A stretch of DNA of 64,000 nucleotides. It comes from Candidatus Omnitrophota bacterium. GTDB lineage: Bacteria > Omnitrophota > Gorgyraeia > Duberdicusellales > 4484-171. The stretch is taken from positions 45,461-109,460 of the forward strand of contig JAIPGM010000005.1 in the NCBI GenBank assembly GCA_021735655.1. The letters run 5' to 3'. Position numbers and translations under genes: made by a program. Positions 7,552 to 64,000 of the stretch are shown one piece after another. Each line of letters starts with the position of its first letter. Position 1 is the first letter of the stretch. The notes beneath the pieces are model-generated. The model was not told the DNA's origin. It ran no database searches and was given only the letters and a program-made list of their open reading frames with translations.

Positions 7552-7666
7552 CTAATACTCCTGGTGTTTTCATATCTACGTAGGAAACTTTTATTCCATG
7601 ATTAATTATACCCTAATAATGAGAAAACCTAAAGTAAAAATAATTAGCGATTTCTTTGAATTAAAC

Positions 7667-8233
7667 TTACTTTAGATAAGCCTTGATGATTTTTTGCTCT
7701 TTTAACGGCTTACTGGCTGAATTAACCGCTGTGCCTTCTATTTTTTGAACAACTTCATAACCGGAGATTACTTCGCCAAAAATTGTATGCTTCATGTTAA
7801 GCCAAGGAGTAGGAACCGTAGTAATAAAAAATTGACTTCCGTTACTATTGGGTCCGGAATTAGCCATCGCCAATAGACCCGGCTTATCAAATTTAAGAGT
7901 TGGAGTAAATTCATCCTCAAACGACGCACCCCAAATTGAGCGACCGCCCATGCCGGTACCAGTCGGGTCTCCGCCTTGAATCATGAAATCAGCCATCACC
8001 CTGTGAAATATTATTCCGTTATAATAACCCTGCTCAACCAGTCCGATGAAATTTTCACAAGCTTTCGGTGCCCGCTCCGGCATAAGTTTAAGCTCGATAT
8101 TACCCTGATTTGTTTCTAGAACTACTATATTTTTTTCCATAGCTTTAACCTCCCCAAAAATACTGCCGGTAAAAATACCAATTAATAAAAAAACAAATAA
8201 CCTTTTCATAAACCCCCTCTCCTCCTTCAGCAA
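7667..8233 (-). CDS. ppiB: Peptidyl-prolyl cis-trans isomerase, cyclophilin type, secreted
   Basis: Signal peptide. Cyclophilin signature FHRVMADFMIQGGDP and the FFITT motif. Confidence 0.9.
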   Translation of the reverse strand: MLKEERGFMKRLFVFLLIGIFTGSIFGEVKAMEKNIVVLETNQGNIELKLMPERAPKACENFIGLVEQGYYNGIIFHRVMADFMIQGGDPTGTGMGGRSIWGASFEDEFTPTLKFDKPGLLAMANSGPNSNGSQFFITTVPTPWLNMKHTIFGEVISGYEVVQKIEGTAVNSASKPLKEQKIIKAYLK

Positions 8234-8248
8234 TATTTCAACCGATCC

Positions 8249-9418
8249 CTAAACCATTCTTATCGCTAGGGCCAAAGCACTGCCACCGCCTAGACAAGTA
8301 GCGGTTAAACCAATTTTTTTATTCTGAACCTTAAGCACATTGATCAAAGTAACTAGCCCTCGGGCTCCGGAAACTCCCAAGGGATGACCCAAGGCAAGGG
8401 TTCCGCCAAAAACATTCAAACGTTGCTTATCCGCACCGCTTAAATTCATAGTCACTAAAGCTTGAACTGAAAAAGCCTCATTTATTTCAAATATATCCAC
8501 GTCAGACAATTCAAGCGAGCTCAACTTAAGGCACTTTTTAATCGCCAAGGCCGGAGCAGTAAAAACTAACTTTGCTTCAACAGCAACTGTAGCATATCCC
8601 AAAATATAAGCTAAAGGAGTAAGTTTATTTTCCTTAAGCCCCTTATCGGAAGAAAAAATCAAAGCCGCGGCTCCGTCTGCCGGGGCTGAAGAACTACCGG
8701 CAGTAACCGTACCGTTAGCTTCGAAAGCCGCAGGTAAATTGGATAATTTTTCTAAAGATAAGTTTTTTCTTGGCTTTTCATCGAGACTGAAAATCTTATC
8801 GTCATTTATAGAAATTGGTACAATTTCATTAGCAGATAGTCCTTGTTCTTGAGCATGGATCGCTTTGCGATGACTATCTAAAGTATAGATATCCTGATCC
8901 TCTCGGGATATATTAAACTCTTTAGCCGTATACTCAGCGATTACTCCCATATGAGTATTGTTTAACTTACACCAAAGGCCGTCGTCAATTAAACTGTCAC
9001 CTAAATCTTCCTTCTTGAATTCTCCTGACTTTTTATTTCGTGGCAAAATATATGGACATTGAGAAGCACTTTCCAAGCCTCCGGCAATAATTAAATCTGA
9101 ATCTCGACAAAGTATAGCCTGACTTGCCAAAACTGCTGATTTTAAACCCGAACCACAAACTTTGTTTATGGTAAAAGCCGGAGTTTCAACTGACAAACCG
9201 GCAGCAACTAAAGCCTGCCTAGCCGGATTCTGCCCTAAACCGGTGCTTATGACATTCCCCATTATTACTTCATCTAGTGACGATTTATTTATCGAATTTT
9301 TTTCAACAATTTTTCTGATTACCGAACCGCCAAGTGAAACCGCAGATAGCGTTTTCAAGCTCTGCCCCATGCCACCGATAGGAGTTCTTAAGCCATCTAC
9401 TATAAATACCTTTTCCAT
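8249..9418 (-). CDS. Acetyl-CoA C-acetyltransferase (thiolase II)
   Basis: Active-site region NKVCGSGLKS. C-terminal thiolase signature with catalytic Cys (TCLGGGSALALAI). 389 aa. Confidence 0.85.
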   Translation of the reverse strand: MEKVFIVDGLRTPIGGMGQSLKTLSAVSLGGSVIRKIVEKNSINKSSLDEVIMGNVISTGLGQNPARQALVAAGLSVETPAFTINKVCGSGLKSAVLASQAILCRDSDLIIAGGLESASQCPYILPRNKKSGEFKKEDLGDSLIDDGLWCKLNNTHMGVIAEYTAKEFNISREDQDIYTLDSHRKAIHAQEQGLSANEIVPISINDDKIFSLDEKPRKNLSLEKLSNLPAAFEANGTVTAGSSSAPADGAAALIFSSDKGLKENKLTPLAYILGYATVAVEAKLVFTAPALAIKKCLKLSSLELSDVDIFEINEAFSVQALVTMNLSGADKQRLNVFGGTLALGHPLGVSGARGLVTLINVLKVQNKKIGLTATCLGGGSALALAIRMV

Positions 9419-47802: not shown

Positions 47803-48132
47803 TTAAATCTTACAGCCACAATTTTTTCTTTTTAATATCTTTACCTGCTCTTTATAGGAATCTATAAATATACACTGCTTTTTTGAGCCGGTAGCTAATT
47901 TTCTATCAAGGTCGCTCTTATGCCTATATCCTCTATTGGCCATCTCCGCAACAAGTTTATTGTGCCGCAAATATAACGAAGCCAATTTACACTTCCATCT
48001 AAGCGTCTCCGGATGCCGAGAGTATCCTTTTTTATTCTTAGTTAGAATAGACCAAATAGCATGTAATTCCCTATGCTCACCTAGAAGATGATTGCGACAA
48101 AGTTTTTTTGGAGGTATATCCCAAATTCTCAT
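47803..48132 (-). CDS. Pyrimidine-dimer DNA glycosylase (T4 EndoV-like, Pyr_excise) family small protein
   Basis: N-terminus MRIWDIPPKKLCRNHLLGEHRELHAIW follows the MR.W..P..L....L..EHRE pattern of the family. Confidence 0.45.
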   Translation of the reverse strand: MRIWDIPPKKLCRNHLLGEHRELHAIWSILTKNKKGYSRHPETLRWKCKLASLYLRHNKLVAEMANRGYRHKSDLDRKLATGSKKQCIFIDSYKEQVKILKRKNCGCKI

Positions 48133-48261
48133 AATTAAAAGCTTGATTCTTCACAGCCTTTTCTGCTATTTCTACCGCCATTACCCGCCAACAACAAAAA
48201 CAAAAAAGCAACCCTAGGTAGAGAGCAGTAAAAAAGTTTAAGATATTTTGTTGCGAAATAA

Positions 48262-50010
48262 TTAAAAACTAACTTTGTAAGTAACCGATCCGCCAAGTTC
48301 GTAAAAGTCTTCTTTAAGCTGAGTTTCTAAATCAACCAAAAGAGTGGTATTTTTCTTGTTGAAGAATTCAAAACGGGAACCGACATTAAAGCTTGAGGGT
48401 GCCGGTCGGTAGCCTGAAGTTTCAAAAGAAGCCCCACCGCCCTCAAAACTGGCTAAAGACTGCTGTTTTTCATTCACCACACTGTAGAAATAACGAAAAC
48501 GAAGCTCGGGAGTGAACAGCATCTTCTCGCTCTCAAAAACCTTACTCAACCTAAGACCTCCGCCCAGCTGTAAAGTTTGGTAATTCTGAGACTCAACGCT
48601 GAGATTCAGCGCTCCGGCTCCAGTCTCAGTATAATCATCGAGCTCGAGATTAGTGTAGCTTAAAGCTAAAAGCGGAATGATCTCGAAATTCTTCTTTTTC
48701 AACTTATAGCCGCCTTCCAGGTAAGCTGAGAGCTGCTGGCCATCGTAATCAGCATTAGCCGTCCTTTCGATAGAACCGACAGTTACCTTTCTCGAATTAT
48801 TATATTCACTGTAGCCGTAAGTCAGCACTGCATCAAACAGATAAGGCTTATCCGGATGGCTATATTCTCCGTAAAGGCCGGTCTGATAACTTGTTATCCG
48901 AGTGCGCTCTTCGTTATCTTTTGACCTGATCTTACCTTCGCTAAACCCTTGGTCTATACCCAAGCGTAAAGAATTATTCAAAAACCCGTGGTCAAAGCCG
49001 ATAACATTACCCCAAAGCTTAGCCCGGTAACCCTTACTTGCACCACGCTCACCCTGCCGGGCATAGCCACCATAAGACTGAAACCAGATATCGTTATTAA
49101 AAGAATCCTCTAATGAGTCTTCCTCAAGGCTATCTTCCTCGATCTTTGAATCTTGTAAACGCAATACCGTGGTCCTGACAAATTTATCCAGGGAACCGTT
49201 TGAGGTATTGATTACTCCCCTGTTAGCAGAAAGGCCCATGTCGTTCTCGGCCGAAGCTACGCCACCACCAGATAAAGCTTCGAGAGTATTAAGAATCGTG
49301 GTCATGTCCGAAGAAGGATTGCTTATATTATCGAGAACCCGACCGACAGCAGCTGAATTAGAGCTGGAAGCCTGGCTTTCAAACCCAGAGGTTGACCGGT
49401 CAGCAGTTAAAACCAAGTTGCCTCCGGAATTTGACGCGCTAAATGACACCCGAGAGTTACTTGAGGTAACTGTAGTCGGAGCATTCCCTATTCCTGAACC
49501 ATTAGTATCGATAATAGTAAAGGTTGCATTTGACGGTATATAGATATCATTGCTAACTGTAACCGCCACTGTACTTGCTGTATTTACCACTGCTGCGGCA
49601 CCAGAAGTTATCCTGCCTGAGGTTGAAGGCGTATCAACGGTCAGGTTAAGGGTAGTCCCTGATCCTTGAGTATAAATGCCGGTACCGCCAAGAGTAAGAG
49701 TATTGGCTCCCAAGCCCAAACTGCCGGCATTATCTAAAGTAAGGTTTCCGGTAATTGTGCGGCTGCCAGTAAGATTTAAAGTTCCGCCGTCTCCTGCCGA
49801 ATCTACAGTAGTAGTTACGGCCGCCAGGTTATGCCCTAGAAAAAGTGTACCCTCCCCGGGCAGACGTCTGACTGCGGCTCGATTCGCTATGAATTCCGCA
49901 TAGAAGTCACCAGACCCAGCAAAAATCACGCCAGAATACGCCTGATTCCGACGGATTCCGAGGATCCGAAACAAAGCCCTGCCTTTGCCCTTGAAGCTCA
50001 AGGGTGCCAA
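48262..50010 (-). pseudogene. Autotransporter-like outer-membrane protein (Gly/Thr/Ser-rich passenger + C-terminal beta-barrel ending in F); N-terminus lacks a signal peptide, possibly 5'-truncated next to the IS
   Basis: C-terminal ~280 aa has alternating amphipathic beta strands and a terminal aromatic. Passenger has TLNLTG repeats. First 60 aa are non-hydrophobic and lie in the higher-GC DNA adjoining the transposase. Confidence 0.5.
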
Positions 50011-50139
50011 AATAGCCTTAAATACGCCTTAAAATAATGAGAATTTTTGAGGGGTTTTATGCCCAGAAAGGGCTATATGCTGTTTAGCGGGGTGCAGTTA
50101 ATATGCGACCGGTTTTTAAGGTAGGAAAAGTCGCCTAAC

Positions 50140-51295
50140 TTGTTGTAGAATGGACACTTACTCAAAACAACACTTTTTGCCATGAAAGGAGCTTTTGTAT
50201 CATGAACCACACCCAATCTTATACCATAAACGGCTGTATATTCCAAGAGTTTTTACTGCTTCTGGGCAGGGTTGTCCACAGTGACCTGATCCGGCAGATG
50301 GAGTACCTGAAAGTGGAGAATGAGGTTCTGCGGACCAAATGCCCGAAACGGATAACCACAAGCCCGGCCGAGAAACGTAAGCTCATCAAATACGGCCTTG
50401 CCTGCAGGGGCAGAATAAAAGGCATTATATCCATCGTAAGCTATTCTACCTTCAGGCGCTGGGTAAATGGCGATATCCGCAATAAATATAAGCCTTCCAA
50501 GCAAGGCACGCCCAGAAAGACCACACAGGAAATAATAGACCTTATAGTACGCCTTGCCCGGGAAAACTGCGACTGGGGCTATGGCCGGATAATGGGCGAG
50601 TTAAAGAAACTAAACATCATCAGACTGTCCCGGAATACCATAAAGGCCATAATGCGCCAGAACGGCCTTGATCCGGCACCAATAAGGGCCCATGACTCAT
50701 GGGATGCCTATATAAAGCGCCATTTCGAAACCTTATGGGCTTGTGACTTCTTTACCAAGACCATCTGGACAGCCATGGGGCCCAAGCTATTCCATGTATT
50801 ATTCTTCTTGAATATCAGAACCCGGAAGGTCCATATAGCCGGTATAACAGAAAAACCTAAAAAGGAATGGGTGATGGAAGCGTCAAAGACGGTATCGTTT
50901 CTATTCAAAGATAAGACCAAGAAGCTCCTTATTCGAGACGGTGATGCTAAATTCCCGAAAGAGTTCAATAGCCTTTTCAAAGACTGTAATACAAAAGTCA
51001 AAAAGATACCGCACCGGTCACCGAATCTTAACCCTTATGCCGAAGGCTTCGTGGGAACCATAAAAAGGGAATGCACGGATCACTTCTTCGTGTTCGGCGA
51101 ACGTCACTTCGAATACCTTGTCCGGGAATACGTCAAATACTATAATACCAAACGTCCGCATTCCGGCCGGGATAACCGGCCCCTTGAATATCATTCGGAG
51201 AAATCAACCGGCAAGCTCAAATGCGACTCACGCCTGGGTGGGATGATTAAGCATTATTATTGGGGGTAACGGAAGGTCACAGTAACTCATCCTCA
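50140..51295 (+). mobile_element. IS element (IS481/IS3-like, single DDE transposase ORF); ends approximate
   Basis: Transposase ORF with a local rise in GC relative to flanks. Terminal inverted repeats could not be defined by eye. Confidence 0.4.
50202..51269 (+). CDS. DDE transposase with N-terminal HTH/leucine-zipper and rve integrase core domain
   Basis: AAAGGAG RBS. rve-type motifs (..WACDFF.., RDGDAKF, NTKRPHSG). 355 aa. Codon usage and GC differ from neighbours. Confidence 0.8.
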   Translation: MNHTQSYTINGCIFQEFLLLLGRVVHSDLIRQMEYLKVENEVLRTKCPKRITTSPAEKRKLIKYGLACRGRIKGIISIVSYSTFRRWVNGDIRNKYKPSKQGTPRKTTQEIIDLIVRLARENCDWGYGRIMGELKKLNIIRLSRNTIKAIMRQNGLDPAPIRAHDSWDAYIKRHFETLWACDFFTKTIWTAMGPKLFHVLFFLNIRTRKVHIAGITEKPKKEWVMEASKTVSFLFKDKTKKLLIRDGDAKFPKEFNSLFKDCNTKVKKIPHRSPNLNPYAEGFVGTIKRECTDHFFVFGERHFEYLVREYVKYYNTKRPHSGRDNRPLEYHSEKSTGKLKCDSRLGGMIKHYYWG

Positions 51296-52101
51296 TTAAT
51301 GTAACGAAATATAGCAGTGTCATTCGAAGCTTTCATTGCGTATTCGTTTTCTAATCGATATCGTGCCACACACTGGAGAAAAGAACCAATGTCATGAAGA
51401 TGGCGAACTTGATCCCATGAATCCAACTTTAAATCAATGCCATAACCAGGCTTTCTAACAATATGAGCAATGCTGTGTCTAATCGAATCCTTCACGTATT
51501 CTCCGGCACTCACATTATTAGTATTTTGATCATGAAGAAAAATTCTATTGGCTGTAAAACGAGTTATAGTTTCACGCATATACTCTAACTCTCGAGGCCA
51601 ATTACCAACAAGATTATTAATATAAGCAACGGCCACACTTTCATCTGCGCTGGGATATACCAAACAATGCCAGAAAAAAAGAATTTGCAAATAAATATTA
51701 TTTGAGCTATTTGCTTCCCGATATAAACGGGCTAACTGGATTTGCTCCGGTGTACTCAAAAGAGATATTGTATAGAATTCGTCCATGGATTCACTGGCAT
51801 TTATCGACCTTTTGACGGAAAAACGAATGTTAACCTTGTTTAGTTTAGCGTCTACCTGCGAACTTATCCCGGAGTGCGTTATAACCCGAGCATTATTAGC
51901 AAAGGTAAAAGCGGAAAGAAATTCAGTCATCAGCTCAAACATCTTCGGTTGGCTACTGCCCTTGGGAATCTTGCATACCAGATCGTCAGTTTCATTGCTC
52001 TTATAATGAGGCACATATTTAAAATCAACATCCTTATAACGAAAATAATATACATCCTTGCGGAAAGCTATCGATATGTCTACTCCGATTGCATAAATCA
52101 T
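51277..52101 (-). CDS. Hypothetical protein, fourth gene of the SIR2 operon
   Basis: 274-aa ORF, 34 nt after the preceding gene, same strand. No recognised motif. Confidence 0.45.
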   Translation of the reverse strand: MIYAIGVDISIAFRKDVYYFRYKDVDFKYVPHYKSNETDDLVCKIPKGSSQPKMFELMTEFLSAFTFANNARVITHSGISSQVDAKLNKVNIRFSVKRSINASESMDEFYTISLLSTPEQIQLARLYREANSSNNIYLQILFFWHCLVYPSADESVAVAYINNLVGNWPRELEYMRETITRFTANRIFLHDQNTNNVSAGEYVKDSIRHSIAHIVRKPGYGIDLKLDSWDQVRHLHDIGSFLQCVARYRLENEYAMKASNDTAIFRYINEDELL

Positions 52102-52135
52102 ATTAATTCCATGATATAAAGGTTGTTTTCAAAGT

Positions 52136-53029
52136 TTATTGTTCGATAGAAGGCTTTTTGGCTTTAAAATAGTTCAGTAATAAGTAATAACGCAGTGCCA
52201 ATTTTTTATCTCCGGCTTCTTTTCTTTTTTTGTATTCTGATTCCACAAATTTAGATGCTTGGCCAAGTCCTTCTTCAAATTTCTTTGCCTGTTCTGAGTT
52301 TTCATTTATACTTTGTAAGAATTCCTTACCGAGATAATCTAATATTGACACACCATCTAAATCCCGGACTATCATTTTTAGACAACTCGTTGCCATAACC
52401 TTGCACAGCTCGACATCCTCATTGGTTTGTGCGGGTAATTGCGGATGCTTATTTGCTAACGTCGCCAAATAATTTAACAGTTCCCGCCCGATAACTATTC
52501 GTGGATATTCCGCAATTTTGCTTTCCAATGCATATGCCTTATATAAGGCAAGTCCATAAATTTCGCCATTAACCAATTCAGTTCCCAAGCCCACTTCTAT
52601 ACCGGCTCGAAATGCCTTTTTCATTGCCAAAGATAAAACCATCATGCCTCCACACGCTAACAGTGTGCCAAAGACACCATTAATTGCATGTGAGTGATAT
52701 TTATCCGTATGCAGACAAACGTAAGCTTGAATACAATCTGAAAAACGTTGATGCTTCAAATTGCTTTTTAGCATTTCTTTGAATTGCTCCATTTTTTCCG
52801 GAGGCACTTTAACCGAAGGCTCCCTTTCTTCTGTATAAGCATCAAAGAAATCCTGGAATCCATTGCGCAAAGTTTCGACGAACATCGCTGTTTGTTTATG
52901 GGCTTCTACTAAGCGTGGATGATTATCTTCAAGGGATTGGCCTTCAAGCCCTTGAAAAGCTTCTTTCTGGCCTAAAATATCGATAAAAGCTACAAGATAA
53001 TAATAGTAATTTATGTTATCTTTTGCCAT
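52136..53029 (-). CDS. Nucleotide-cyclase/GGDEF-like palm-domain protein (third gene of the SIR2 operon)
   Basis: YLVAFIDILGQKEAF resembles the metal-binding strand FaDIvGFT of class III cyclases. FRAGIEVGLGTELVNGEIYG..AYALES resembles RiGIhtGpvvaGviG..VNtAsRlES. The central segment ACGGMMVLSL occupies the position of a GGDEF-like turn. Confidence 0.45.
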   Translation of the reverse strand: MAKDNINYYYYLVAFIDILGQKEAFQGLEGQSLEDNHPRLVEAHKQTAMFVETLRNGFQDFFDAYTEEREPSVKVPPEKMEQFKEMLKSNLKHQRFSDCIQAYVCLHTDKYHSHAINGVFGTLLACGGMMVLSLAMKKAFRAGIEVGLGTELVNGEIYGLALYKAYALESKIAEYPRIVIGRELLNYLATLANKHPQLPAQTNEDVELCKVMATSCLKMIVRDLDGVSILDYLGKEFLQSINENSEQAKKFEEGLGQASKFVESEYKKRKEAGDKKLALRYYLLLNYFKAKKPSIEQ

Positions 53030-53045
53030 AATACGTCTCAGCCCA

Positions 53046-55826
53046 CTACTTGTTATATTTCTTATAAATTTCTGTTAAAAACTCAAACCCTGCTCTAGCA
53101 TATTTATCACAAATAGAATTTGCAATTTCATTTTTAAAACCAGCTAAATAAATTTTTTCAACAATAGATTGAATATTTTCTTGCTTATACCACGGAATAC
53201 TTTTTTCTATCATTATTAAAAATACATTCCCTACGTCTTTTGGGTTAACGTCTGCTAATTTATCGAAATACTCAAGTAAGAATGAACTATGGTAACGCTC
53301 TTCTACATATTTAATTGACTGCTTCAACCAATCCACCTGCTCTGTTTGTAATTGATCAAGAAATACCGCGAGTAGATTCAAATCGGAAAGGATGTCTTTG
53401 TTTTTGTCTTCTTTTCCTTTTGTTCTGTTAAAACAATACCGCCAAAATTCAAATATTCTTTCCTTTTGGTCGCAATCTAATTGCGCATCCCTATGAGCCC
53501 AAAAAAGACTGATCACCTCTTCAATATCATTTGGGTCCCATTTTTCTAAAATATATTTAAACAAACTGTCTTGGCCATCTATAGTCTCTTGCCCCCTTAA
53601 GTAGGATATTGTTACATTTTCTACAATTCGTCTTTTCGCTTGATCGTTCGAAAATTTTGTATCAAGCGCACGCCTTAGATGACCGTTATCTTTTAATAGA
53701 TTGTAGATAACAGCATAAACGGTATTGACATAAGAATATCCTTGCATAGCGCATCGCCAATGCTTTTCTTCAGCAGGAAAGATATTATTAATATTCGAAG
53801 TAACCCAATTTTTCTGCAAATAATACAAATTAGGCAAATAAGCACCAGATAGGCTTGAGAATTCGAAGTTTCCTTCCTTTGTTCTTTCAATCTCCCGACT
53901 AAATAGTGGCGCTACTGTCTTCCAGAAATCCTCTTTTTCTTTTATACCTTTATCAGGCAATTTTTCGAAATCACGGTACCGCCTAAGGACATAACTTTTA
54001 AAACTCTCTAGCACATGACCCTTTGTGGTATTAATCGCTTCGGTAAGCGCGTCTTCATCTTTACCACTTGCTGTTGATTCTTGTTTATCAAGCAGGGTCC
54101 GAATAATATTGTCTATTCTCTTATAATTATTCTCAGTAAGATTCAAATCGTCATTCTGAATCCCATTCTTGATCAAATCCGAGATAGCCGCAGGAATCCA
54201 ACTTTTCTTAGGTTCAAGGGGAAACTGACTCTCCTTCTCTTTCCCGTCCCACAATACATCATCGCAGACGATAGCTTGACAAAAGTCTAAAATCTTGTCC
54301 CAATTAATCTCTTTTTTATCCCGCGCAAGTTCTTCAAACGCCTCTATTACATAATACCAATATTCGTAACTAGACTTCTTGAACTCAATGAGACAATTTT
54401 CAAAAAATCCCTGTTTTAGCTTAATCGCTTCTTTTAAAGACTGGCCTGCTTCTCGTATCGCAGTTTCTCCAAAGCGGTTTTTACCTTTGAAGTTACCAAG
54501 GAAAGTAATAATTTCGTTAATGCTTCCCTGTGCCAACAATTCACTAGCTGAAAATAGAGACTCATCCCCCCATGATACAGGTCCAATATAACTTAAGAAT
54601 TCTGGATGTTCCGGCTTATAATCAATCCCTTTAAAATATTTCTCCTCTACATCATTCGGTATTGAATATCCCGAAACTTTAATAGCATATAGCCATCGCC
54701 TGCGAAGTATCGCATCCAATTTTTCCTTATCAACATCTTTTCTCCAGTCCCCGGACAACTGAACAACATCATTCATCAATGAATTCTGAAGATCTTGAGA
54801 AAATTGTTTAAAGTGGCGTGTTATCAGCTTATACAGTTCGTGGTGATAATTACTTTCGAGGAAAATAGTTTTACCGGTATCGCGAATGATTTTTTCACTA
54901 GTGGTTTTGTATTTATCAAACAACTGTCCTGTAATATACAATGAAAAACGTCTAATAATATGCTTGTCTGACCTAAAGCATGATTCAATAATAGTAGACG
55001 CTTCCTGTGAGGACGCATAGGCAAGAAACACATCTCTTAATCCAGAAACTAAAATATGTCGATATTCATCTCTGCTTATATTCTGTTCGCTATCTTCGAT
55101 TGCTGGACGCCACATATAAGAATATGCGTCATCCTTTTCCGTCACAATATGCTCAATTTTCTTCTTAAGAATTTCGACAATTTCGGCACCATATTTTTCG
55201 CCCAAATGCGTAGCATTGATCTTAAATAATTCCTGCAAACTATGGGCACCAAGGCTATGCCGATTTTCAATCCTGATGAAGTCAAGAATGATTTCTATAA
55301 GTCGGCTAACTTTTTGTAACTCCTCTGGTTCTTTCAATAAGTTTGGCAAAAGGGTTTTGCCAATCTCCAGCATTACCATTGAGGCATCAAACTTACTGTC
55401 AAGCCAATCAGCAATAAGCTCAATATCTTTTATTTCCACGACATCTGACGGCAAGAGTGCCATGATTTTAACAAAAGACTGCCACGTACGCCAATTATCT
55501 GCTTTTTTGGTCTTATCATCGGGACGAGTCACCTCACGAATAATTGACATTAACTTTCGGACATGCTCTTTATTTCCAGATTTCGAGCATTCTTTGGATA
55601 CCTTTTCTAAATATGTCAAAGCAGGCCAATATGGAATTGAGAAGAAACCTTTGTTTTTTTCCGACTCTACTGGAGAAGGATTATTTGTTGAACCAAAATA
55701 ACCATGATCTTTAAGCAAAGTAAGATATTCAACCTTCGACAATTCATTAAAGACCTGTGCTCGGTATTCAGCCCCTTTTGCCATGTAATCTAAAAGACTT
55801 TTTTGCTCTGGAGTTATATTCGTCAT
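53046..55826 (-). CDS. Large (926 aa) all-alpha-helical repeat protein, second gene of the SIR2 operon; no NTPase motifs
   Basis: No Walker A/B. Helix-rich composition throughout. Start overlaps the SIR2 stop (ATGA). Confidence 0.5.
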   Translation of the reverse strand: MTNITPEQKSLLDYMAKGAEYRAQVFNELSKVEYLTLLKDHGYFGSTNNPSPVESEKNKGFFSIPYWPALTYLEKVSKECSKSGNKEHVRKLMSIIREVTRPDDKTKKADNWRTWQSFVKIMALLPSDVVEIKDIELIADWLDSKFDASMVMLEIGKTLLPNLLKEPEELQKVSRLIEIILDFIRIENRHSLGAHSLQELFKINATHLGEKYGAEIVEILKKKIEHIVTEKDDAYSYMWRPAIEDSEQNISRDEYRHILVSGLRDVFLAYASSQEASTIIESCFRSDKHIIRRFSLYITGQLFDKYKTTSEKIIRDTGKTIFLESNYHHELYKLITRHFKQFSQDLQNSLMNDVVQLSGDWRKDVDKEKLDAILRRRWLYAIKVSGYSIPNDVEEKYFKGIDYKPEHPEFLSYIGPVSWGDESLFSASELLAQGSINEIITFLGNFKGKNRFGETAIREAGQSLKEAIKLKQGFFENCLIEFKKSSYEYWYYVIEAFEELARDKKEINWDKILDFCQAIVCDDVLWDGKEKESQFPLEPKKSWIPAAISDLIKNGIQNDDLNLTENNYKRIDNIIRTLLDKQESTASGKDEDALTEAINTTKGHVLESFKSYVLRRYRDFEKLPDKGIKEKEDFWKTVAPLFSREIERTKEGNFEFSSLSGAYLPNLYYLQKNWVTSNINNIFPAEEKHWRCAMQGYSYVNTVYAVIYNLLKDNGHLRRALDTKFSNDQAKRRIVENVTISYLRGQETIDGQDSLFKYILEKWDPNDIEEVISLFWAHRDAQLDCDQKERIFEFWRYCFNRTKGKEDKNKDILSDLNLLAVFLDQLQTEQVDWLKQSIKYVEERYHSSFLLEYFDKLADVNPKDVGNVFLIMIEKSIPWYKQENIQSIVEKIYLAGFKNEIANSICDKYARAGFEFLTEIYKKYNK

Positions 55827-56812
55827 TTGTTTAATAACCGCCTTATGACATCTTTTTCTTCTTCAAAATTAGGCTTATTGACTTTAGCTTTTAGAACAGC
55901 TGCCCATTTAATAATGATCTCTTCCAAATGAACGTGTCCTTTTTTGTCGATGTTATAGTCAATCAATTTTATGCCACAATGTCTTTCAAAATATCCCTTA
56001 AGATGCTTATAGGCAGCGTTATCCCTGCTCATACGTGGATATAGCCAAAAATGCCTTGGTTCTTCAACCCTCGGGGAATTGCTTTTTCTAACAATGAACT
56101 CCAATATTTCTTCTTCTTCCAGTCCATATCCAATAAACAAGACAATCTTCCGCGAAAACAAATCATTTAAAAAATCTATAACAAATCTATTCATATAATG
56201 ATCCATATAATCTCTGGTGGTCATAATCATGGTTTCTTTGCTTTTTACGCTTCCATGAAGATGAATAACCGAGCCTGGCTGATCTAGTCGCGCAGATGTT
56301 AAATCCTCTTTCCTGAAAAATACAGAAGTAGGAGAGGTAATTCCAGAGTTTCCCAGAGAACTGTCATCACCTTTTGAACTTAATATTTTATTATCAGCGA
56401 GCTTATCAAGGCAATCATCATAATTAGTCGTTACAAAAACAGTCCCTATCGAATACAAAGCATCGTATATCGCCGTTTTTACCGCTATTTCTTTATCCTG
56501 AAAAATTAACCTTCCATAATCATAATCGATGCCTTTTGCTTTGTAGTTATCAAAAAAAATAGAGAGTTGAATCTTGGGGTTTAAGGCTAAGAGAGAAGAT
56601 TTTTCTGAATATTCGATGTGCCCTTCTTTATAGAGAATGTCAATCGCCCGTCTTCCAAGCTCAACCCATGAAGGGTACCCCAATAATCTAGATACTCCAT
56701 TGCCGACAAACAAAATTAATTTGCCGTTTTGAGCTGCGTCGATAATAGACGAATGATCTTCTATGTTGGGAATAATTCTTGACGCAGGATTTTTATCTTC
56801 TATCGTCATCAA
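55823..56812 (-). CDS. Stand-alone SIR2_2-family (defence-type sirtuin-like NADase) domain protein
   Basis: Motifs in the canonical order: KLILFVGNGVSR (GAGxS equivalent), VFVTTNYDDCLD, VIHLHGSV (catalytic His), IVLFIGYGLEE. 329 aa. Confidence 0.75.
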   Translation of the reverse strand: MMTIEDKNPASRIIPNIEDHSSIIDAAQNGKLILFVGNGVSRLLGYPSWVELGRRAIDILYKEGHIEYSEKSSLLALNPKIQLSIFFDNYKAKGIDYDYGRLIFQDKEIAVKTAIYDALYSIGTVFVTTNYDDCLDKLADNKILSSKGDDSSLGNSGITSPTSVFFRKEDLTSARLDQPGSVIHLHGSVKSKETMIMTTRDYMDHYMNRFVIDFLNDLFSRKIVLFIGYGLEEEEILEFIVRKSNSPRVEEPRHFWLYPRMSRDNAAYKHLKGYFERHCGIKLIDYNIDKKGHVHLEEIIIKWAAVLKAKVNKPNFEEEKDVIRRLLNK

Positions 56813-57157
56813 TAATACCCCCTAATATACGTTTCTAAATCTACCTCTCCGTCCAATACCTCTGCTTGATCCAAAACCTTTTTGACGGGTACAGTATATT
56901 CACCGGTCGGTTAGTTCCCCACTACCTGCTAACCCTTCTACCAACCTAATTTACCAACCCATGATTCTTACTGGTTAGTTATCTGGGCAGTTTTCAGGGT
57001 AGTCTTTTTAGGATATTCAAAATATTTGTTACTCATACATGACCTTTATAATATTACTTTCATAAAAAATGCCATAACCTGAATTCTATCGGGCTACGGC
57101 AAATCGCAATGGCAGGTCTTTTAGTCTAAAACTCTCGAGCAACCTTCGCCCATCAAA

Positions 57158-57931
57158 TTAGCACTTTAAACATTTTTCTTTTTTAGTCGACTGCTGTTTT
57201 GAATGTATTCGTTCCCGCGCCATCCGACAATACTCTGGAGAAATATCAATGCCGATATAATTTCGTTTAAGGTCCCTTGAAACAACGGCTGTCGTTCCCG
57301 AGCCCATAAAAGGATCAAGTACAATTTTAGCATTGGTTGATGATACAATTCTTTGAATCAAAGATACAGGAAATGGAGCAGGGTGCCCATTTTTCATTTC
57401 CTGCGTAAATTCCCAAACATCACCGTAGGCATTCGCTTTTTTTGCCAATTTGAAATCCGGTTTAGCTATCAAGTATATAACCTCATAAGTAGGCAAGAAA
57501 TACCCTGCGTTAAAATTAATTCCACCTTTTCTTTTCCAAACAATAATCTGGCGCACAGGAAATTTACTGACAATGTCATGCCGGTCTTGAAGCAAGCCAT
57601 TTTGTACCCGCCATTTATGATTATAAAAAATTGCTCCGTCATTTTTTATTAATCTATACATTTCATCGAGACATTTAATTTGCCATGACACATATTCTTC
57701 ATGAGGCATACAGTCATCATGATGACTGTATCCGTTAATCAAAGCGGCTCTCGACCATTTACCACCGCGACCATCTTTCATACCGTTTCCTGTAGAATTC
57801 TTAAGATTGTAAGGCGGAGATGTCACAGCCAAATCAATCGATTCGTCCGGCATTGCTTTCATTACTTCTAAACAATCACCGCAAATGATCTTATTCAGAT
57901 AATCCTTAGGAAATTTTAGTTTAGCACTCAT
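57158..57931 (-). CDS. DNA amino-methyltransferase, beta-class (motif IV SPPY N-terminal, motif I FMGSGTT C-terminal); N4-cytosine or N6-adenine
   Basis: LAVTSPPYNL near the N-terminus. DPFMGSGTTAVVS near the C-terminus. Confidence 0.8.
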   Translation of the reverse strand: MSAKLKFPKDYLNKIICGDCLEVMKAMPDESIDLAVTSPPYNLKNSTGNGMKDGRGGKWSRAALINGYSHHDDCMPHEEYVSWQIKCLDEMYRLIKNDGAIFYNHKWRVQNGLLQDRHDIVSKFPVRQIIVWKRKGGINFNAGYFLPTYEVIYLIAKPDFKLAKKANAYGDVWEFTQEMKNGHPAPFPVSLIQRIVSSTNAKIVLDPFMGSGTTAVVSRDLKRNYIGIDISPEYCRMARERIHSKQQSTKKEKCLKC

Positions 57932-57955
57932 TTCATTCTTTCGATAACAGGTTAA

Positions 57956-58762
57956 TCAAAACACCTCTTTAACATCATCATATAGATCCGACCACACGCC
58001 TTGCTTGAGCCGAAATTTTGTTCCGTGGTTATGTCCCGTTCGGGCGTCAAAATCAATCAACAAACTTCCTGCCTCTACACAGCACAAGAATTTCTCAAAT
58101 GAAAAACCAGATAGAACAGAAAGGTGTTGATAGCAAAAATACTCATGCCCGTCGTCAATTTTGGCCTCAGCGATAACGTAAAAACAATTCTTTATTTTTT
58201 CGCCAATCGCATACTTCAAATCTTCAAAGCCCCAATAAGGCTCCGGTGAAATCGCTCCCAAGCCAGCTCTTTTTTTAACAGAAGATAGCCATGCCTTGAT
58301 CTCAGGGTCTGCCATATCAGCCTTCTTTGAGTCAAATACGAACTTCAACTTTTTAGCAGTACGATCAACGACTACTGTAAATCCGCGATTTGTAAAACTA
58401 CTAGAGCTGGTGGTAGACCGAAAACTCATTTCAGTTTTGGGGTATTTAAACCCAGCCTGTTTATGTGGCCAACCATATTTTGGTAAAAGAATATTGCTTA
58501 CAATCCGAGCCGCTGTTGGCGATGGTTCAATGTGCTTTAATGTTATAAGCGAAGAAGAATGCGCTCGCTGTCCTTTAAGCTCCCATTCTCGAGCATTAGG
58601 AATCGGCAGATTGTTTTCTGTAATGCCAAGAAGAACTTCAAGCGTGTTGCCAACAGCGCCATCATTTCGAGTGTCTCGTGTTTGTTTTACGCTCTTATGC
58701 CACCCTTTCGATGCGATAGCTTTAATTTCCTTGATTAACTCATCCTTTGAAAATAATTTCAT
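57956..58762 (-). CDS. Type II restriction endonuclease, MvaI/BcnI-like
   Basis: Sandwiched between two MTase genes with 24- and 13-nt spacers. N-terminal pattern MKLFSKDEL..DGAVGNTLEVLLGI.ENN..EWELKG matches my recollection of this family. A candidate ExK (VIAEAK) follows acidic residues. Confidence 0.5.
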   Translation of the reverse strand: MKLFSKDELIKEIKAIASKGWHKSVKQTRDTRNDGAVGNTLEVLLGITENNLPIPNAREWELKGQRAHSSSLITLKHIEPSPTAARIVSNILLPKYGWPHKQAGFKYPKTEMSFRSTTSSSSFTNRGFTVVVDRTAKKLKFVFDSKKADMADPEIKAWLSSVKKRAGLGAISPEPYWGFEDLKYAIGEKIKNCFYVIAEAKIDDGHEYFCYQHLSVLSGFSFEKFLCCVEAGSLLIDFDARTGHNHGTKFRLKQGVWSDLYDDVKEVF

Positions 58763-58775
58763 AATCTCCCTTTCA

Positions 58776-59768
58776 CTAATACCTTTTTTGGGGCGGCTTC
58801 CAGAAATCTAAAAGATATTCAAAAGTTACACCCATTGTTATATAATTGCTTGGCCAGCCAAAAATACCAATGCCATTGACCACATTGGTACGATCCCATA
58901 TTATGACATTTCGTAATTCATAGCCTCTCTTACGGAGTTCCTCAATCAACGAAACGTGAATTGTAATGCGCCGGTTTTCCCACCACATATCCGGAACATT
59001 AATAACGCAATGTGCTTTCTCTCTAAGCAGAGGAAGTAACCCTTCAAAAATATCTCCCATTGCCGTCGTATAGGAATCAATAGCCATTGTGCCTAGATCA
59101 CGCACATCTTGAGAATATTGCTCAACTTTACCCAATTGCTTGTTGTTCCTGTCGCGTCGAGATTTGTTTTGACGGGATCTATTTAAAAGATTTGCGTAGG
59201 GCGGAGATGTCCAGATCAAACTTACAGTATTGGGGGAGAGATATTCTGAAATATTTCTGGCGTCATCCTGAATGGCCATCTGAGCACATGCATTAAACAG
59301 GTTAGGATTCTTTTGGAGCCGCTTAACACATAACTCAATGTATTTTTTTTGGAGATCGAACCCAACGGCATTTCGGTTCAAATCAGTTGCGGCAATAAGT
59401 GATGTTCCACTTCCAACAAACGGGTCAATAACCAATTGTCCCTGATGTGTGAATAATTCGATGACTTTTTTTGCGAGGGATATTGGAAAAGTTGCAGGAT
59501 GAACAGATTTATCTCTTATATCGCGAGTTTCATAAAAAAACTGCCAAACTCCTATTTGGGATTTAAGCCAGTCCTTGGGGCCCATGCAATTAATATGTGT
59601 ATGGCCACAATTACATAAACGCTCGTGCGCCATACCTAGCTTTGTGCCATATAAAGAATCGCCTTCAAAAACGGCCAAGGCTTTTTGCTCTGTTTTACTC
59701 TTATCATTGTGACCCTGATCAATAGATCTTTTGTCAACCGCGCTATGACCAAAACTTTGATTTCCCAT
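58776..59768 (-). CDS. Second DNA amino-methyltransferase (motif I DPFVGSGTS precedes motif IV SPPY)
   Basis: DPFVGSGTSLIAATDL at ~aa 113. IWTSPPYANL at ~aa 187. 330 aa. Confidence 0.8.
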   Translation of the reverse strand: MGNQSFGHSAVDKRSIDQGHNDKSKTEQKALAVFEGDSLYGTKLGMAHERLCNCGHTHINCMGPKDWLKSQIGVWQFFYETRDIRDKSVHPATFPISLAKKVIELFTHQGQLVIDPFVGSGTSLIAATDLNRNAVGFDLQKKYIELCVKRLQKNPNLFNACAQMAIQDDARNISEYLSPNTVSLIWTSPPYANLLNRSRQNKSRRDRNNKQLGKVEQYSQDVRDLGTMAIDSYTTAMGDIFEGLLPLLREKAHCVINVPDMWWENRRITIHVSLIEELRKRGYELRNVIIWDRTNVVNGIGIFGWPSNYITMGVTFEYLLDFWKPPQKRY

Positions 59769-59825: not shown

Positions 59826-60446
59826 TTAGATATTTCGAATCGTAGTAACTACAATACCCTGCACCTGAAAATCTCTAGTAACCACTATTGGCTTATGTTG
59901 TTTATTGCTCGAACACGGTTTCAAAACGACCGTATCTCCTGATGAATTATATTGTTTAACTGTAACCTCGTTGTCAACTAAAGCAATGATGACATCTCCT
60001 GTGTTTGCGGTTTCCTGTTTGCGCACGAGTAGGAAGTCACCATCTTCAATACCTTTCTGATTCATTGAGTCGCCTTTGGCTCTGACAAGAAAATATTTAT
60101 GCGGAAGTTGGGCTAATTTTGTTGAAACCGGAAACCACGATTCGATATTTTCTTCAGCTAAAATAGGAATACCACAGGCAACAGTACCGACAAGAGGCAC
60201 GCTGATTGTCTGAACATTATCACTGTTATTAATATCCATAACCAATCGCAAGGCCCCTGAAGGATTTCTACGCAACACTCCTTTAGAAATTAATTTGTTA
60301 ATCAATAGGGCAACAGAGCGAGGTGAACGATATCCTAAAGTCCCCATTAAGTCTCTTAATGAAGGGCATTTGCCAAAATTGACAAGAGCATTTCGGATGG
60401 CTTTAATGACAATCGCTTCTTTATCGGAAATCATTATATTGCTCAT
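59826..60446 (-). CDS. LexA/CI-like repressor with S24 peptidase domain (ORF-track extent 59826..60527; start more likely at 60446 or 60434)
   Basis: N-terminal HTH (LVNFGKCPSLRDLMGTLGYRSPRSVALLINKLISKG). VACG cleavage-site analogue. S24 Ser/Lys region (AKGDSMNQ..). A perfect palindrome lies at the start. Confidence 0.7.
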   Translation of the reverse strand: MSNIMISDKEAIVIKAIRNALVNFGKCPSLRDLMGTLGYRSPRSVALLINKLISKGVLRRNPSGALRLVMDINNSDNVQTISVPLVGTVACGIPILAEENIESWFPVSTKLAQLPHKYFLVRAKGDSMNQKGIEDGDFLLVRKQETANTGDVIIALVDNEVTVKQYNSSGDTVVLKPCSSNKQHKPIVVTRDFQVQGIVVTTIRNI

Positions 60447-60463
60447 GTATACAATTGTATACA
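60446..60463. promoter_or_regulatory. Perfect 18-bp palindrome TGTATACAATTGTATACA at the repressor start (SOS-box-like operator candidate)
   Basis: Exact palindrome with the half-site pattern TGTATAC..GTATACA, reminiscent of CTGT-N8-ACAG LexA boxes. It overlaps or abuts the repressor start codon. Confidence 0.5.
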
Positions 60464-61085
60464 ACATGGATAACTTTGTCAATGATTTATTTTCTTGATG
60501 ATGAAAAGGCAACGCTGATAATAACATATGTGTTTTTCAGAACATCAAAACTTGTTCAGGTTTTACTGACTTTCAAAGCCACGGCTTAACAGGACAAAAC
60601 TACATTTATACTGACATTCGCATGTCAATGATGACAATTTTGCCCTGTTTTGACCCTGTTTTGAGCCATTTTGGGCCCTTTTTACTGACATATTGGCATT
60701 GGAATGTCAGGGTGTACCGGCCGTTTTGCCCTCAAATCGTGAAATAATTCCAATCATAACATCAATAACTACAATATATTACGCATAAATAGTCTTTTCC
60801 AAGATCATGATGCGAATGACAAAATTGTCCCTGACATCGTTTTTTGAAGTCAAAATCACTGACAAACTGCGCCTCGGCTGACCCTCGGCCCAGGCCCGCC
60901 CGGGAAGGACCCACAATAATAATGCGTGCGGAGGAGGGTGGCAAGGAGGCCAATCTCCACCCTCTGCCAAGGCGCATTTACTCCATTAGAAAGCCGTCAT
61001 TTCTAACAGAGTTTACCTGACAAAACCTTTGCGATGGAACAGCGTCCGAGATCATCGCTTGGGCTTCTCCGCATTATTTGACTTG

Positions 61086-61769
61086 TTACTCCGTTACCGC
61101 TTCCGAAACATCCACAGCAAGGGAAGACTGCACACTGAAACGTTTCGTAAGTTTGTCTATTTCTTCCTCGATATCGAAGCTCCGCACCCAGCTCTCCTTT
61201 CGCTCGATATCCTTTTCGATATCCGCAACCGTCGGCTTACTTCTATCGGCCAAGGCTCTGTCTTTGGCCTCATGAAATATGTCATACGGTTCACTTCCAA
61301 GCGCCGGACTGAACGATGGATATTCCTCAAGACGTCTTCGTGCGGTTTCCGGATGACCATATATTGCGATAGCCATAGCGTAAAGCCTGCCTTTTTCACG
61401 CCAGAGCTCAAGCTCCACCTTCAAACGCTTGCTGTTAAGCACTCTGCGCTCTGTCACGATATTGCGTGATTCTTCCTCATGCAGGGCTGTCAGTGTTTCA
61501 GAAAGCTTTGCCTTTAGCTTTTCGATAGTTTCGTCAACGATCTCGAGATTTATCTTGGCCTCATCGAAACGCTTGTCCGCTTGCTTTACCGCATCCGGAC
61601 TTATTTTCTCGTCGCATATTGCCCGGCTTCTGATTTCTTTTACCTTTTCCTTCGCCTCGTCGTGTTCCTTCTGATATTGCCTTTGCTTTTTCTCAAGCGC
61701 TACTATCTGTTCGACAATCTCATCCGGCGTGCTTTTCTTATTCAGAATATTCAGAAAATTAAGTTTCAT
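61086..61769 (-). CDS. Coiled-coil hypothetical protein
   Basis: 227-aa ORF, highly charged with heptad-like patterns. Preferred over the shorter overlapping plus-strand ORF. Confidence 0.45.
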   Translation of the reverse strand: MKLNFLNILNKKSTPDEIVEQIVALEKKQRQYQKEHDEAKEKVKEIRSRAICDEKISPDAVKQADKRFDEAKINLEIVDETIEKLKAKLSETLTALHEEESRNIVTERRVLNSKRLKVELELWREKGRLYAMAIAIYGHPETARRRLEEYPSFSPALGSEPYDIFHEAKDRALADRSKPTVADIEKDIERKESWVRSFDIEEEIDKLTKRFSVQSSLAVDVSEAVTE

Positions 61770-61775
61770 GATTTT

Positions 61776-62195
61776 TTATCTCCTTTCGATTTTGTTAGGT
61801 GCTGTAATAGATAAGGCTTCTTCCAGGCTACAACCATTCGATTCCTGATAACTTCTGGCACGTTCGATATGCTCCAACTGCTCGGCAATTAAAGCGCTGT
61901 CGGAATCAACCTTTTTATCCGGCGCTGTCCGGCTTAAAGCCTCGGTTAACGTACACTCGAATTTATCCCTGTACTCATAGGCCCGCTTGAGATGTTCAAG
62001 CCGGATATCGCCGGTAGAGACCATTCCCGGATGTTTCTTTGCTGTCACCCGTAAAGCCTCGGCAAGAGTGCATTTATTGCGCTTCATGTAGATATTGGCG
62101 TCGATTAAATGCACAAGTTGTTTTTCTTCCTCCGAGCCCGGGACATAACGCTTGATCATCTGACTGATCGTATTCAATACATGTAATTGGTTCAT
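61776..62195 (-). CDS. Small protein with three ~40-aa internal repeats (C(T/S)L(A/T/E)EAL..TA)
   Basis: Repeats RNKCTLAEALRVTAKKHP / KFECTLTEALSRTAPDKK / ESNGCSLEEALSITAPNK. Confidence 0.45.
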   Translation of the reverse strand: MNQLHVLNTISQMIKRYVPGSEEEKQLVHLIDANIYMKRNKCTLAEALRVTAKKHPGMVSTGDIRLEHLKRAYEYRDKFECTLTEALSRTAPDKKVDSDSALIAEQLEHIERARSYQESNGCSLEEALSITAPNKIERR

Positions 62196-62282
62196 TTTTA
62201 GTCTCCTCCTGTTTTGGTTTTCGTTACTATGAAATTACCCATGGCTTTTTATCTACACCCTCATAGAATCACCTCCCCCTGT

Positions 62283-62549
62283 GATGACCGTGAACGTTGT
62301 GAACGTAAATTCCTGTCTTTTCTAATTACCTCTTTTTGCGTAGTTTCTTGACCTTTTACCCTTATTTTTCTAAACCTTAAAAAGCAGGAAATTACGTTCA
62401 AGATCTTCACAATCTTCATAACTTGTTATGGCTTCATGCGTTACCCCATGAATATGGCTGTGACCGTGGAAGGCTGATATTCACAACGTTCACTCGAATC
62501 AGCCCGGCGTATCTTCGCAACGTTCACAGACGTTCACACCTTCGTTCAC
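62283..62549. repeat. Iteron-like array: two GTGAACG repeats (62290-62305) and four inverse-oriented CGTTCAC copies (62485-62549) bracketing an AT-rich spacer; candidate origin
   Basis: Direct reading gives GTGAACGTTGTGAACG, and then CACAACGTTCAC, GCAACGTTCAC, GACGTTCAC, TTCGTTCAC. TGACCGTG is also duplicated at both ends. Confidence 0.55.
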
Positions 62550-63992
62550 ACTGTTTTCAAAAAACGTATCGCCTTTATTCTTGCGTAAAATAAATAGCTT
62601 CCGGCCCGTTCCGGATTCCCGCTTTTTGCTACGTACAATATCAATTCCTATACCACGCATAACCGGCGCTATCCTCATAAGCTCCGATGATAGAGCCTTG
62701 GGATTATCGGGAATGCGTTTATCGAACCCGGACTCCGGCTTAATATACTCAAGCAAGGTAGTGGCTGAACCGCACCACTGTCCGCCGTTGGATTCCACAA
62801 GATAGGCTAACTTCTGCGTAATAGGGTTCTCTTCGGCAGTATCTTCCCATTTATACTCAACCGACTCCTGATACTTTTTGAAAAACTCATCCTGTGAATA
62901 TCCCAGTGTCTCGGAAAGGGCCGCGCCCCACCTGGCAAAGTCTGACATTCTAAACTTTTCATGGCCGGTTACTTTATTAACGATGGCCATAGCATTGGAT
63001 ATCGCCGAGAAGAAACCGCCCAATATGCCCGGAAGCGATGCCTGCCATTCATCGGCAATCTGCTTTTCGGGCCTTGTTTCTTTTAAAGGCGGGATATCGA
63101 AGATGATGGATCTATCCAGTAAATCCGGCCTGCATACGGAATTGCCTATACCGTTTAATACAAAGCACCGGCGGTATGTCCGTATGAATACCTCGTCATT
63201 CGTGTAAAGCGAGCGTTTCATGTCACCTTCACCGGTTACGGCCCGGCAGAGGAAATCACTGAACCATTCGGAAATCTTCGAAAGGTTATCGAAAGTATTT
63301 ATCCAGTGTTTATCTGCTATCATTTGAGCCTGATCCAAATCCTTTGGGCTTGAGATGAGCATAACCTTGGAAGGGTCGCATAGGCTTTTAATCAACCGGG
63401 AATTATTGGATTTTCCCGTGCCTTGCTCGCCGACTTGAACAGGTATAACGTGGGGAATATCTGGAATAAAAAACGACGCTAACATCGTCATGAAAAGACA
63501 GTAATCATCCTTGTTGATATTACAGAATTCCAGAAACCTCTTCGGATCATGTCCTTTAACAGGTATAACCTGCGTATCCTGATGATTGTATCTTTTGAAT
63601 ACCGGCGGAAGGTAGACAACCTGCCAGCCTTTCTTATCTATAAAGACTCCCTTCCAATCGGGTGTAGTAAGATCATAATAAATGCTGTCTTTATACCAGC
63701 CGACACGGTTATAAAGTTCGAATTTGGGCGAATCTTCGCATTTTGCCTCTGCCTGAATCCGTGCCTGTTTTAATGCTTCGTTACATGGCGGGCTTTTGTA
63801 TTTATAGCGGTAGCGCTTGGCAAGCCAGTTCCTGAAGCGGGAGCTGTTGGTCTGGCATACCTCCAGATGATTATCGATAGGGAGCACTATAAAGGAGTTG
63901 CCTTGCTGATCACGATAATAGTCTGTTATTTCTTTTTCGCAGTATCGTGTAAGTATTTCACCCTGGGTGGGATGCGCCTTGCGATAATTCAC
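62499..63992 (-). CDS. VirE/P4-primase C-terminal-like P-loop ATPase (replication protein of a mobile element)
   Basis: Walker A VGEQGTGKSNNSRLI. A hydrophobic stretch followed by D (Walker B-like). 497 aa. Next to the iterons. Confidence 0.55.
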   Translation of the reverse strand: MNYRKAHPTQGEILTRYCEKEITDYYRDQQGNSFIVLPIDNHLEVCQTNSSRFRNWLAKRYRYKYKSPPCNEALKQARIQAEAKCEDSPKFELYNRVGWYKDSIYYDLTTPDWKGVFIDKKGWQVVYLPPVFKRYNHQDTQVIPVKGHDPKRFLEFCNINKDDYCLFMTMLASFFIPDIPHVIPVQVGEQGTGKSNNSRLIKSLCDPSKVMLISSPKDLDQAQMIADKHWINTFDNLSKISEWFSDFLCRAVTGEGDMKRSLYTNDEVFIRTYRRCFVLNGIGNSVCRPDLLDRSIIFDIPPLKETRPEKQIADEWQASLPGILGGFFSAISNAMAIVNKVTGHEKFRMSDFARWGAALSETLGYSQDEFFKKYQESVEYKWEDTAEENPITQKLAYLVESNGGQWCGSATTLLEYIKPESGFDKRIPDNPKALSSELMRIAPVMRGIGIDIVRSKKRESGTGRKLFILRKNKGDTFFENSVNEGVNVCERCEDTPG

Positions 63993-64000
63993 CTGGCAAT

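Follow-up and report, generated by a model that had tools for sequence, protein, structure and literature searches.

A DSR1-family defence system probably split at its effector-sensor linker, with an optional cyclase-like gene downstream, in a Candidatus Omnitrophota genome

The DNA analysed here, referred to as the window, is a stretch of 64,000 nt from Candidatus Omnitrophota bacterium (assembly GCA_021735655.1, contig JAIPGM010000005.1, positions 45,461-109,460, forward strand). Four tightly spaced open reading frames (ORFs), g1 to g4, lie on its minus strand, and sequence comparison makes it likely that the first two are a DSR1-family defence system that has been split into separate genes at the effector-sensor linker. 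The predicted effector, a stand-alone SIR2 NAD+ hydrolase (NADase), is encoded by g1 (55823..56812, 329 aa from a TTG codon; Pfam and PADLOC), and the DSR1-type sensor, which corresponds to the C-terminal domain of DSR1 as a gene of its own, is encoded by g2 (53046..55826, 926 aa; PADLOC). They are followed by g3 (52136..53029, 297 aa), which has the predicted fold of a class III nucleotidyl cyclase with a C-terminal helical domain, and by g4 (51277..52101, 274 aa), a MauJ-family gene (PF17419) whose product has an alpha/beta domain at the N-terminus and a helical one at the C-terminus. The start codon of g2 overlaps the stop codon of g1 in the sequence ATGA (aacaaATGAcg), and the intergenic gaps are 16 nt between g2 and g3 and 34 nt between g3 and g4. 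The true start of g1 is probably the ATG at 56809, one codon past the TTG, giving 328 aa; this start was called in a second assembly of the same sequence (L001). The coordinates and lengths in the initial annotation were exact, and the ATGA coupling, the four SIR2 motifs and defence type of g1 and the cyclase-like nature of g3 that it had described all held.

For g1, the only Pfam family assigned was SIR2_2 (PF13289, E=3e-20). The four motifs are at positions 37 (GNGVS), 128 (TTNYD), 184 (HLHG) and 226 (FIGYGL), and they place the putative NADase-type catalytic residues at N130 and H186. The protein matched the PADLOC Dsr1 model PDLC04166 over positions 9-283 (E=4e-55), and its residues 25-323 align to residues 12-291 of the fused DSR1 protein P0021. 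In PADLOC it is matched best by Dsr1, LmuA and ThsA, all defence proteins, with the ThsA match (E=5e-12) limited to positions 14-232 of 478, the SIR2 part. Upstream of g1, a non-coding gap of 345 nt (56813-57157) separates the gene from a restriction-modification (RM) methyltransferase and holds two weak sigma-70-like sites at 57075-57048 and 56839-56812.

No Pfam family was matched by g2, and no solved structure was found for its family, or for that of g4, by sequence profile. The initial annotation had stated that the partners of g1 match no described SIR2 system, which is wrong for g2, since it matches the same PADLOC Dsr1 model over positions 310-1225 of 1227 with E=5.7e-165. Residues 10-926 of g2 align to residues 305-1227 of fused DSR1 at 47% identity. 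Together g1 and g2 tile PDLC04166 and are colinear with the fused DSR1 proteins of 1227-1232 aa, and the alignments of the two against fused DSR1 place the gene boundary in the short linker between the domains. Fused relatives of 1227 aa match PDLC04166 end to end, and a 'SIR2 family protein' from B. anthracis pXO1 also matches this model.

The split recurs outside the window. Sensor homologues occur as many stand-alone proteins of about 925-935 aa (35-93% identity to g2) and as SIR2-fused proteins of about 1227-1239 aa. Pairs of a SIR2 gene and a sensor gene whose stop and start codons overlap or abut were found in L160 (83% identity to g2), L161/L162 (49%), L168 (47%), L169 (44%) and L170 (39%), and on the RefSeq Vibrio coralliilyticus plasmid pOCN014, where the sensor gene carries the sole annotation "hypothetical protein". 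Among 72 Dsr1-like loci in reference genomes, split pairs were also found in Elusimicrobia, Sphingobacterium, KSB1, Terriglobia, Planctomycetes and others. In L161/L162 the bare SIR2 and sensor pair is flanked by the housekeeping genes MiaB-like, MiaA and HflX, which indicates that two genes suffice. On these comparisons the conserved unit is the pair g1 and g2 rather than a four-gene system.

A second split point was observed in betaproteobacterial Dsr1-like loci (L086-L097), in Curvibacter, Hydrogenophaga, Thauera, Bordetella, Paraburkholderia, Trinickia and other genera. Here the first gene (about 506 aa) encodes SIR2 and the start of the sensor and the second (about 744 aa) the remaining sensor, with a 4-nt overlap between them, for instance at 7026-8546 / 8543-10777 in L088 and 7011-8546 / 8543-10834 in L093. 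As this arrangement is present in about a dozen betaproteobacterial reference-genome loci, the DSR1 family has undergone fission at least twice.

The effector module also varies within the sensor family. TIR-fused sensors of about 1093-1100 aa are 56-66% identical to g2 and are its nearest relatives that are not stand-alone. When L160 (5020-6322), with split SIR2 and sensor genes, was compared with L166 (3998-4813), which like L167 has a TIR-fused sensor, the flanks were found to be shared: the 989-aa HsdR gene has 75% nucleotide identity, the final 2.4 kb of the sensor 68% identity, and both arrangements carry the same HNH_5 gene downstream. The difference is limited to the effector region, and the comparison of L160 with L166/L167 looks like an in-place exchange between SIR2 and TIR. 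In L003 (6167-12314) and L006 (6170-12301), the Dsr1-type sensor is 1265 aa long; it has an insert of about 130 aa, and its N-terminal domain, of about 195 aa, is neither SIR2 nor TIR. Next to this sensor come g3 and then a DUF5677 protein (458-471 aa).

The AlphaFold model of g3 (pLDDT 88.6, pTM 0.87) shows the cyclase fold with an extra C-terminal helical domain. Three residues are invariant in homologues down to 39% identity, namely D17 (IDxLGQK, end of beta-1), D98 (FSD, in a beta-hairpin turn) and R141, and in the predicted structure D17 and D98 are placed as are the two metal-binding aspartates of the cyclase fold. In an alignment made by eye, Y163 and A167 occupy the class III Asn/Arg sites, so that the transition-state pair appears to be replaced; g3 probably still binds one nucleoside triphosphate and two metals. 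No match of g3 to Pfam Guanylate_cyc (PF00211) was obtained at E<=1, and no model of Pfam, NCBIfam or PADLOC (the last at E<=1) matches it. Clustered at 50% identity, the family counts 975 representatives with E<=1e-30 and 4,813 with E<=1e-3, nearly all of about 285-310 aa and matched over their full length. A few members (among P0066-P0360) look like tandem duplications of about 600-640 aa with two to three matched stretches, and two (P0157 and P0168) carry C-terminal extensions of about 210 aa without annotation, for which no Pfam match was found. No g3 matches were obtained among annotated plasmids or phages.

The neighbourhoods of g3 were surveyed in 80 metagenome loci and L001. Only one neighbour recurs, a Dsr1-type sensor, and in every case it lies directly upstream. 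It is present at 10 of the 13 g3 loci with at least 73% identity to g3 and at none of the 54 below this value, where g3 members are monocistronic or have MutS, GyrB, HrpA or type I RM genes as neighbours. In the 10 linked loci the gap from sensor to g3 is -1 to 31 nt, with one of 170 nt, and a neighbour-joining tree groups the linked copies in a single clade. The N-terminal modules of the linked sensors are split SIR2, fused SIR2 or, in L003/L006, the domain of about 195 aa. In the reverse direction, g3 was found in 0 of the 72 Dsr1-like loci from reference genomes, and the sensors closest to g2 (83%, 66% and 62% identity) are without it. The slot after the sensor is taken by g3 in the window, L163 and L168 and by HNH_5 in L166/L167 and in L160, the closest relative on a long contig (83%), and it is empty in L161 and L165. 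In L169 (4511-5227) it holds a 238-aa protein with an RNKLSH (HEPN-like) motif and in L170 (6793-7872) a 359-aa PD-(D/E)XK-like protein with a PD...ECK motif, and both genes overlap the sensor stop codon; neither has a Pfam match, and PADLOC gave a weak CARF_HEPN match for L169 (E=0.002) and none for L170. By these comparisons the g3 family is large and mostly solitary, with one clade attached directly downstream of Dsr1-type sensors, and behind such sensors g3 is an optional, clade-specific add-on and not an obligatory component.

Several observations speak against reading the locus as a self-sufficient DSR1 pair. With the NCBIfam Dsr1 equivalog NF041818, g1 scored 19.9 bits against a cutoff of 1400 bits, and g2 had no match at E<=1. 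These sub-cutoff scores make it an extrapolation to carry the capsid-protein trigger over from E. coli Dsr1 (EcDsr1). Minus-strand terminator-like sites were searched for within the g1-g4 block and none was found, which is compatible with co-transcription of all four genes. The linked g3 copies are 74-87% identical while their sensors are 26-55% identical to g2, and conservation of g3 beside diverging sensors exceeds the expectation for plain hitchhiking and hints at a functional tie. As to the first of these points, relatives of g2 match the sensor region of NF041818 colinearly (P0021, E=1.3e-11; the C-lobe of a Curvibacter protein, E=4e-15). The kinship of g1 and g2 to canonical Dsr1 is real at the level of sequence, although they belong to a distant subfamily and are not equivalogs.

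The hint of a functional tie can be taken further, to a three-gene unit in which g3 is an integral partner and a nucleotide second messenger, which it would make constitutively or on infection, gates or amplifies the pair, or in which the sensor controls g3 as a second output. The single clade of sensor-linked copies argues for such a unit, as do an adjacency that has outlasted both sensor divergence and changes of effector type, the invariance of both metal-binding aspartates and of R141, and the cyclase fold that g3 has in common with the Pycsar enzymes. Against it stand the solitary state of the family at large, the g3-free sensors closest to g2 and the Dsr1-like loci of reference genomes, the other genes that take the same slot, and the apparent replacement of the Asn/Arg pair; in addition, Pfam and PADLOC detected no nucleotide-binding receptor domain in g1, g2 or g4. 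A three-gene unit is considered unlikely. It is also doubtful, though conceivable, that the g3 family is a new nucleotide-signalling component of bacterial immunity, with one clade coupled to Dsr1-type sensors and single-gene modules elsewhere.

The initial annotation had taken g1-g4 together as one undescribed SIR2-based defence system. The tight spacing, the lack of internal terminator-like sites and an identical block in the second assembly fit this proposal. However, the block in L001, including the g1/g2 junction and the RM arrangement, is the same sequence as the window and not a separate lineage, and g4 adjoins g3 or DSR1 in only 1 of the 81 g3 loci, which is this window-identical copy. 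Among the six places that hold homologues of g4 (three proteins), none adjoins g3 or DSR1. With g1 and g2 matching the catalogued Dsr1 and g3 missing from most relatives, a four-gene system is very improbable. What stands of the proposal is a defence locus; what does not are its undescribed status and the four-gene unit.

The match of g4 to Pfam MauJ (PF17419) scored 35.9 bits (gathering cutoff 28, E=1.5e-8). No methylamine-utilisation genes lie around it, so the MauJ name is uninformative on its function here. The C-terminal helical domain has an invariant RHSIAH motif. The protein is possibly HEPN-like, and a Foldseek search of g4 against the Protein Data Bank gave nothing significant. In L154-L159, unrelated defence operons end with a MauJ-family gene, which follows an NOV_C giant protein beside an OLD-TOPRIM ATPase, an RNase_HII-domain protein, or a ThsB_TIR and TIR_2 pair within a type I RM locus. 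Since its homologues trail unrelated defence genes and not DSR1 or g3, g4 is regarded as an independent defence-island gene that most likely acts on its own, and its family suggests a recurrent tail gene of defence islands. No matches of g4 were found in annotated plasmids, and a literature search on MauJ in defence found nothing relevant. Two further candidates were rejected. The DUF5677 protein after g3 in L003/L006 is not a relative of g4 (hhalign probability 0.13), and a Pycsar-like cyclase-effector pair of g3 and g4 is opposed by their co-occurrence only in the window's own sequence and by the lack of a detectable nucleotide-binding domain in g4.

A DSR1 pseudogene decaying after a frameshift, or an error in sequencing, would also leave two ORFs colinear with the fused proteins, and the junction does lie beside a short A-rich run (aacaaatga). 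Both ORFs are nevertheless full length and intact, the junction is identical in the independent assembly L001, and split genes whose junction has a proper ATG were found at 93%, 83%, 49%, 47%, 44% and 39% identity as well as on the Vibrio plasmid. This explanation was rejected as scarcely credible. The chance that g1 is a housekeeping CobB-like sirtuin deacetylase is negligible, for although it belongs to the broad SIR2 superfamily it matches SIR2_2 and not SIR2 (PF02146), has no CxxC zinc ribbon (two cysteines in total), finds its best matches among defence proteins and is coupled to a Dsr1 sensor in a mobile defence island.

The split DSR1 pair can be compared with known systems. DSR1 itself (Gao 2020, Garb 2022; PDLC04166) shares the SIR2 NADase module and the sensor (about 920 aa), with colinearity along the whole model, and also the defence-island setting and the expected NAD+ depletion. 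It differs in being a single polypeptide where the window has two overlapping genes that fall far under the NCBIfam equivalog cutoff, and in the window clade a cyclase-like gene often lies downstream. With the Avs7-type tetratricopeptide repeat (TPR) sensors the system shares the principle of one sensor family with exchangeable effectors, here SIR2 split or fused, TIR fused, or another N-terminal domain; unlike Avs7 it has no STAND NTPase, and the proposed sensor kinship is drawn through the Dsr1 literature. DSR2 likewise combines a SIR2 NADase with a large sensor, which is helical, fused and binds a phage structural protein, but this sensor is of a different family and 0 of the 4 window proteins match the PADLOC Dsr2 model. 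Thoeris ThsA has a SIR2 NADase domain, whereas no SLOG domain and no ThsB/TIR partner occur among g1-g4. The four proteins also contain no HerA ATPase, pAgo or STAND NTPase by Pfam and PADLOC, unlike SIR2-HerA, SPARSA and Avs5. The initial annotation had likewise listed no such module and no TIR, and a custom TIR hidden Markov model found no TIR domain in the whole window. For g3, the cyclase fold and the two metal-binding aspartates are shared with Pycsar PycC and the class III adenylyl and guanylyl cyclases; it differs from them in having no Guanylate_cyc or PADLOC match and in its extra C-terminal helical domain. Unlike in Pycsar, no effector with a cyclic-nucleotide-binding domain lies beside it (g2 and g4 by Pfam), and the neighbours of its homologues vary.

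The mode of action proposed for the pair follows these precedents. DSR1 depletes NAD+ on phage infection (Garb et al., 10.1101/2021.12.14.472415). The sensors of Dsr1 and Avs7, the latter a bilobed TPR sensor, are homologous, and EcDsr1 and SeAvs7 are both triggered by the phage major capsid protein (PMC12803255, 2026 preprint). In the same work, sensors of the Dsr1/Avs7 type are combined with many effectors, and split proteins are mentioned in its methods (PMC12803255). By analogy, the products of the translationally coupled g1 and g2 genes would assemble non-covalently, and the g2 sensor may bind a phage protein made during infection, for which the major capsid protein of the E. coli Dsr1 system is the precedent. 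Binding would release the g1 SIR2 NADase (N130, H186), and the released enzyme would cleave NAD+ and starve phage replication, that is, cause abortive infection by NAD+ depletion.

The g1-g4 block is carried by a mobile defence island, in line with the setting given by the initial annotation. Upstream of g1 on the minus strand is a type II RM system (57158..59768; Pfam) of a methyltransferase, an MvaI/BcnI-family endonuclease and a second methyltransferase, with matches to N6_N4_Mtase (E=3.5e-43 and 1.3e-25) and MvaI_BcnI (E=1.2e-62). Also upstream is a LexA/CI-like repressor (59826..60527, minus strand) with a helix-turn-helix and an S24 peptidase domain (Peptidase_S24, E=3e-28; LexA_DNA_bind, E=3e-7). 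The ORF at the window edge (62499-63998, about 497-499 aa) is similar to a phage primase/helicase (Microbacterium phage Zeta1847 gp37, E=9e-25), and several small ORFs without a Pfam match lie beside it (60762-63998); the primase/helicase-like ORF and the S24 repressor together suggest an integrative mobile element. On the other side, downstream of g4, an insertion sequence (IS) transposase with an rve integrase core (50202..51269, plus strand; Pfam rve_3, E=6e-10, and HTH_32) ends 7 nt from the g4 stop, and the L001 contig ends at this transposase. The G+C content, about 37% in the defence block, rises to 45-48% at 48000-51300, where an autotransporter gene (48262-50010) and the IS transposase lie. 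Features of tRNA or Rfam type that could mark the island borders were found nowhere in the window, and a search for direct or inverted repeats around the block gave only short, chance-like matches. Related DSR1 cassettes elsewhere adjoin type I RM systems and primase-bearing elements.

New here are the gene fission and the optional cyclase-like add-on in a catalogued family, DSR1. For annotation, a stand-alone SIR2 gene next to a large "hypothetical" protein can be a split DSR1, which annotation may miss or call only in half. Split at two or more different points, and with SIR2 and TIR effectors exchanged in place, the sensor family offers a natural example of modular sensor-effector evolution, and the split arrangement suggests that the sensor can activate its effector without covalent attachment. 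The clade-specific linkage of g3 to the sensor is the one thread worth pursuing; if a functional tie between the two is true, it would add a nucleotide-signalling (second-messenger) arm to DSR1-type immunity, which is thought of as a self-contained sensor-effector system.

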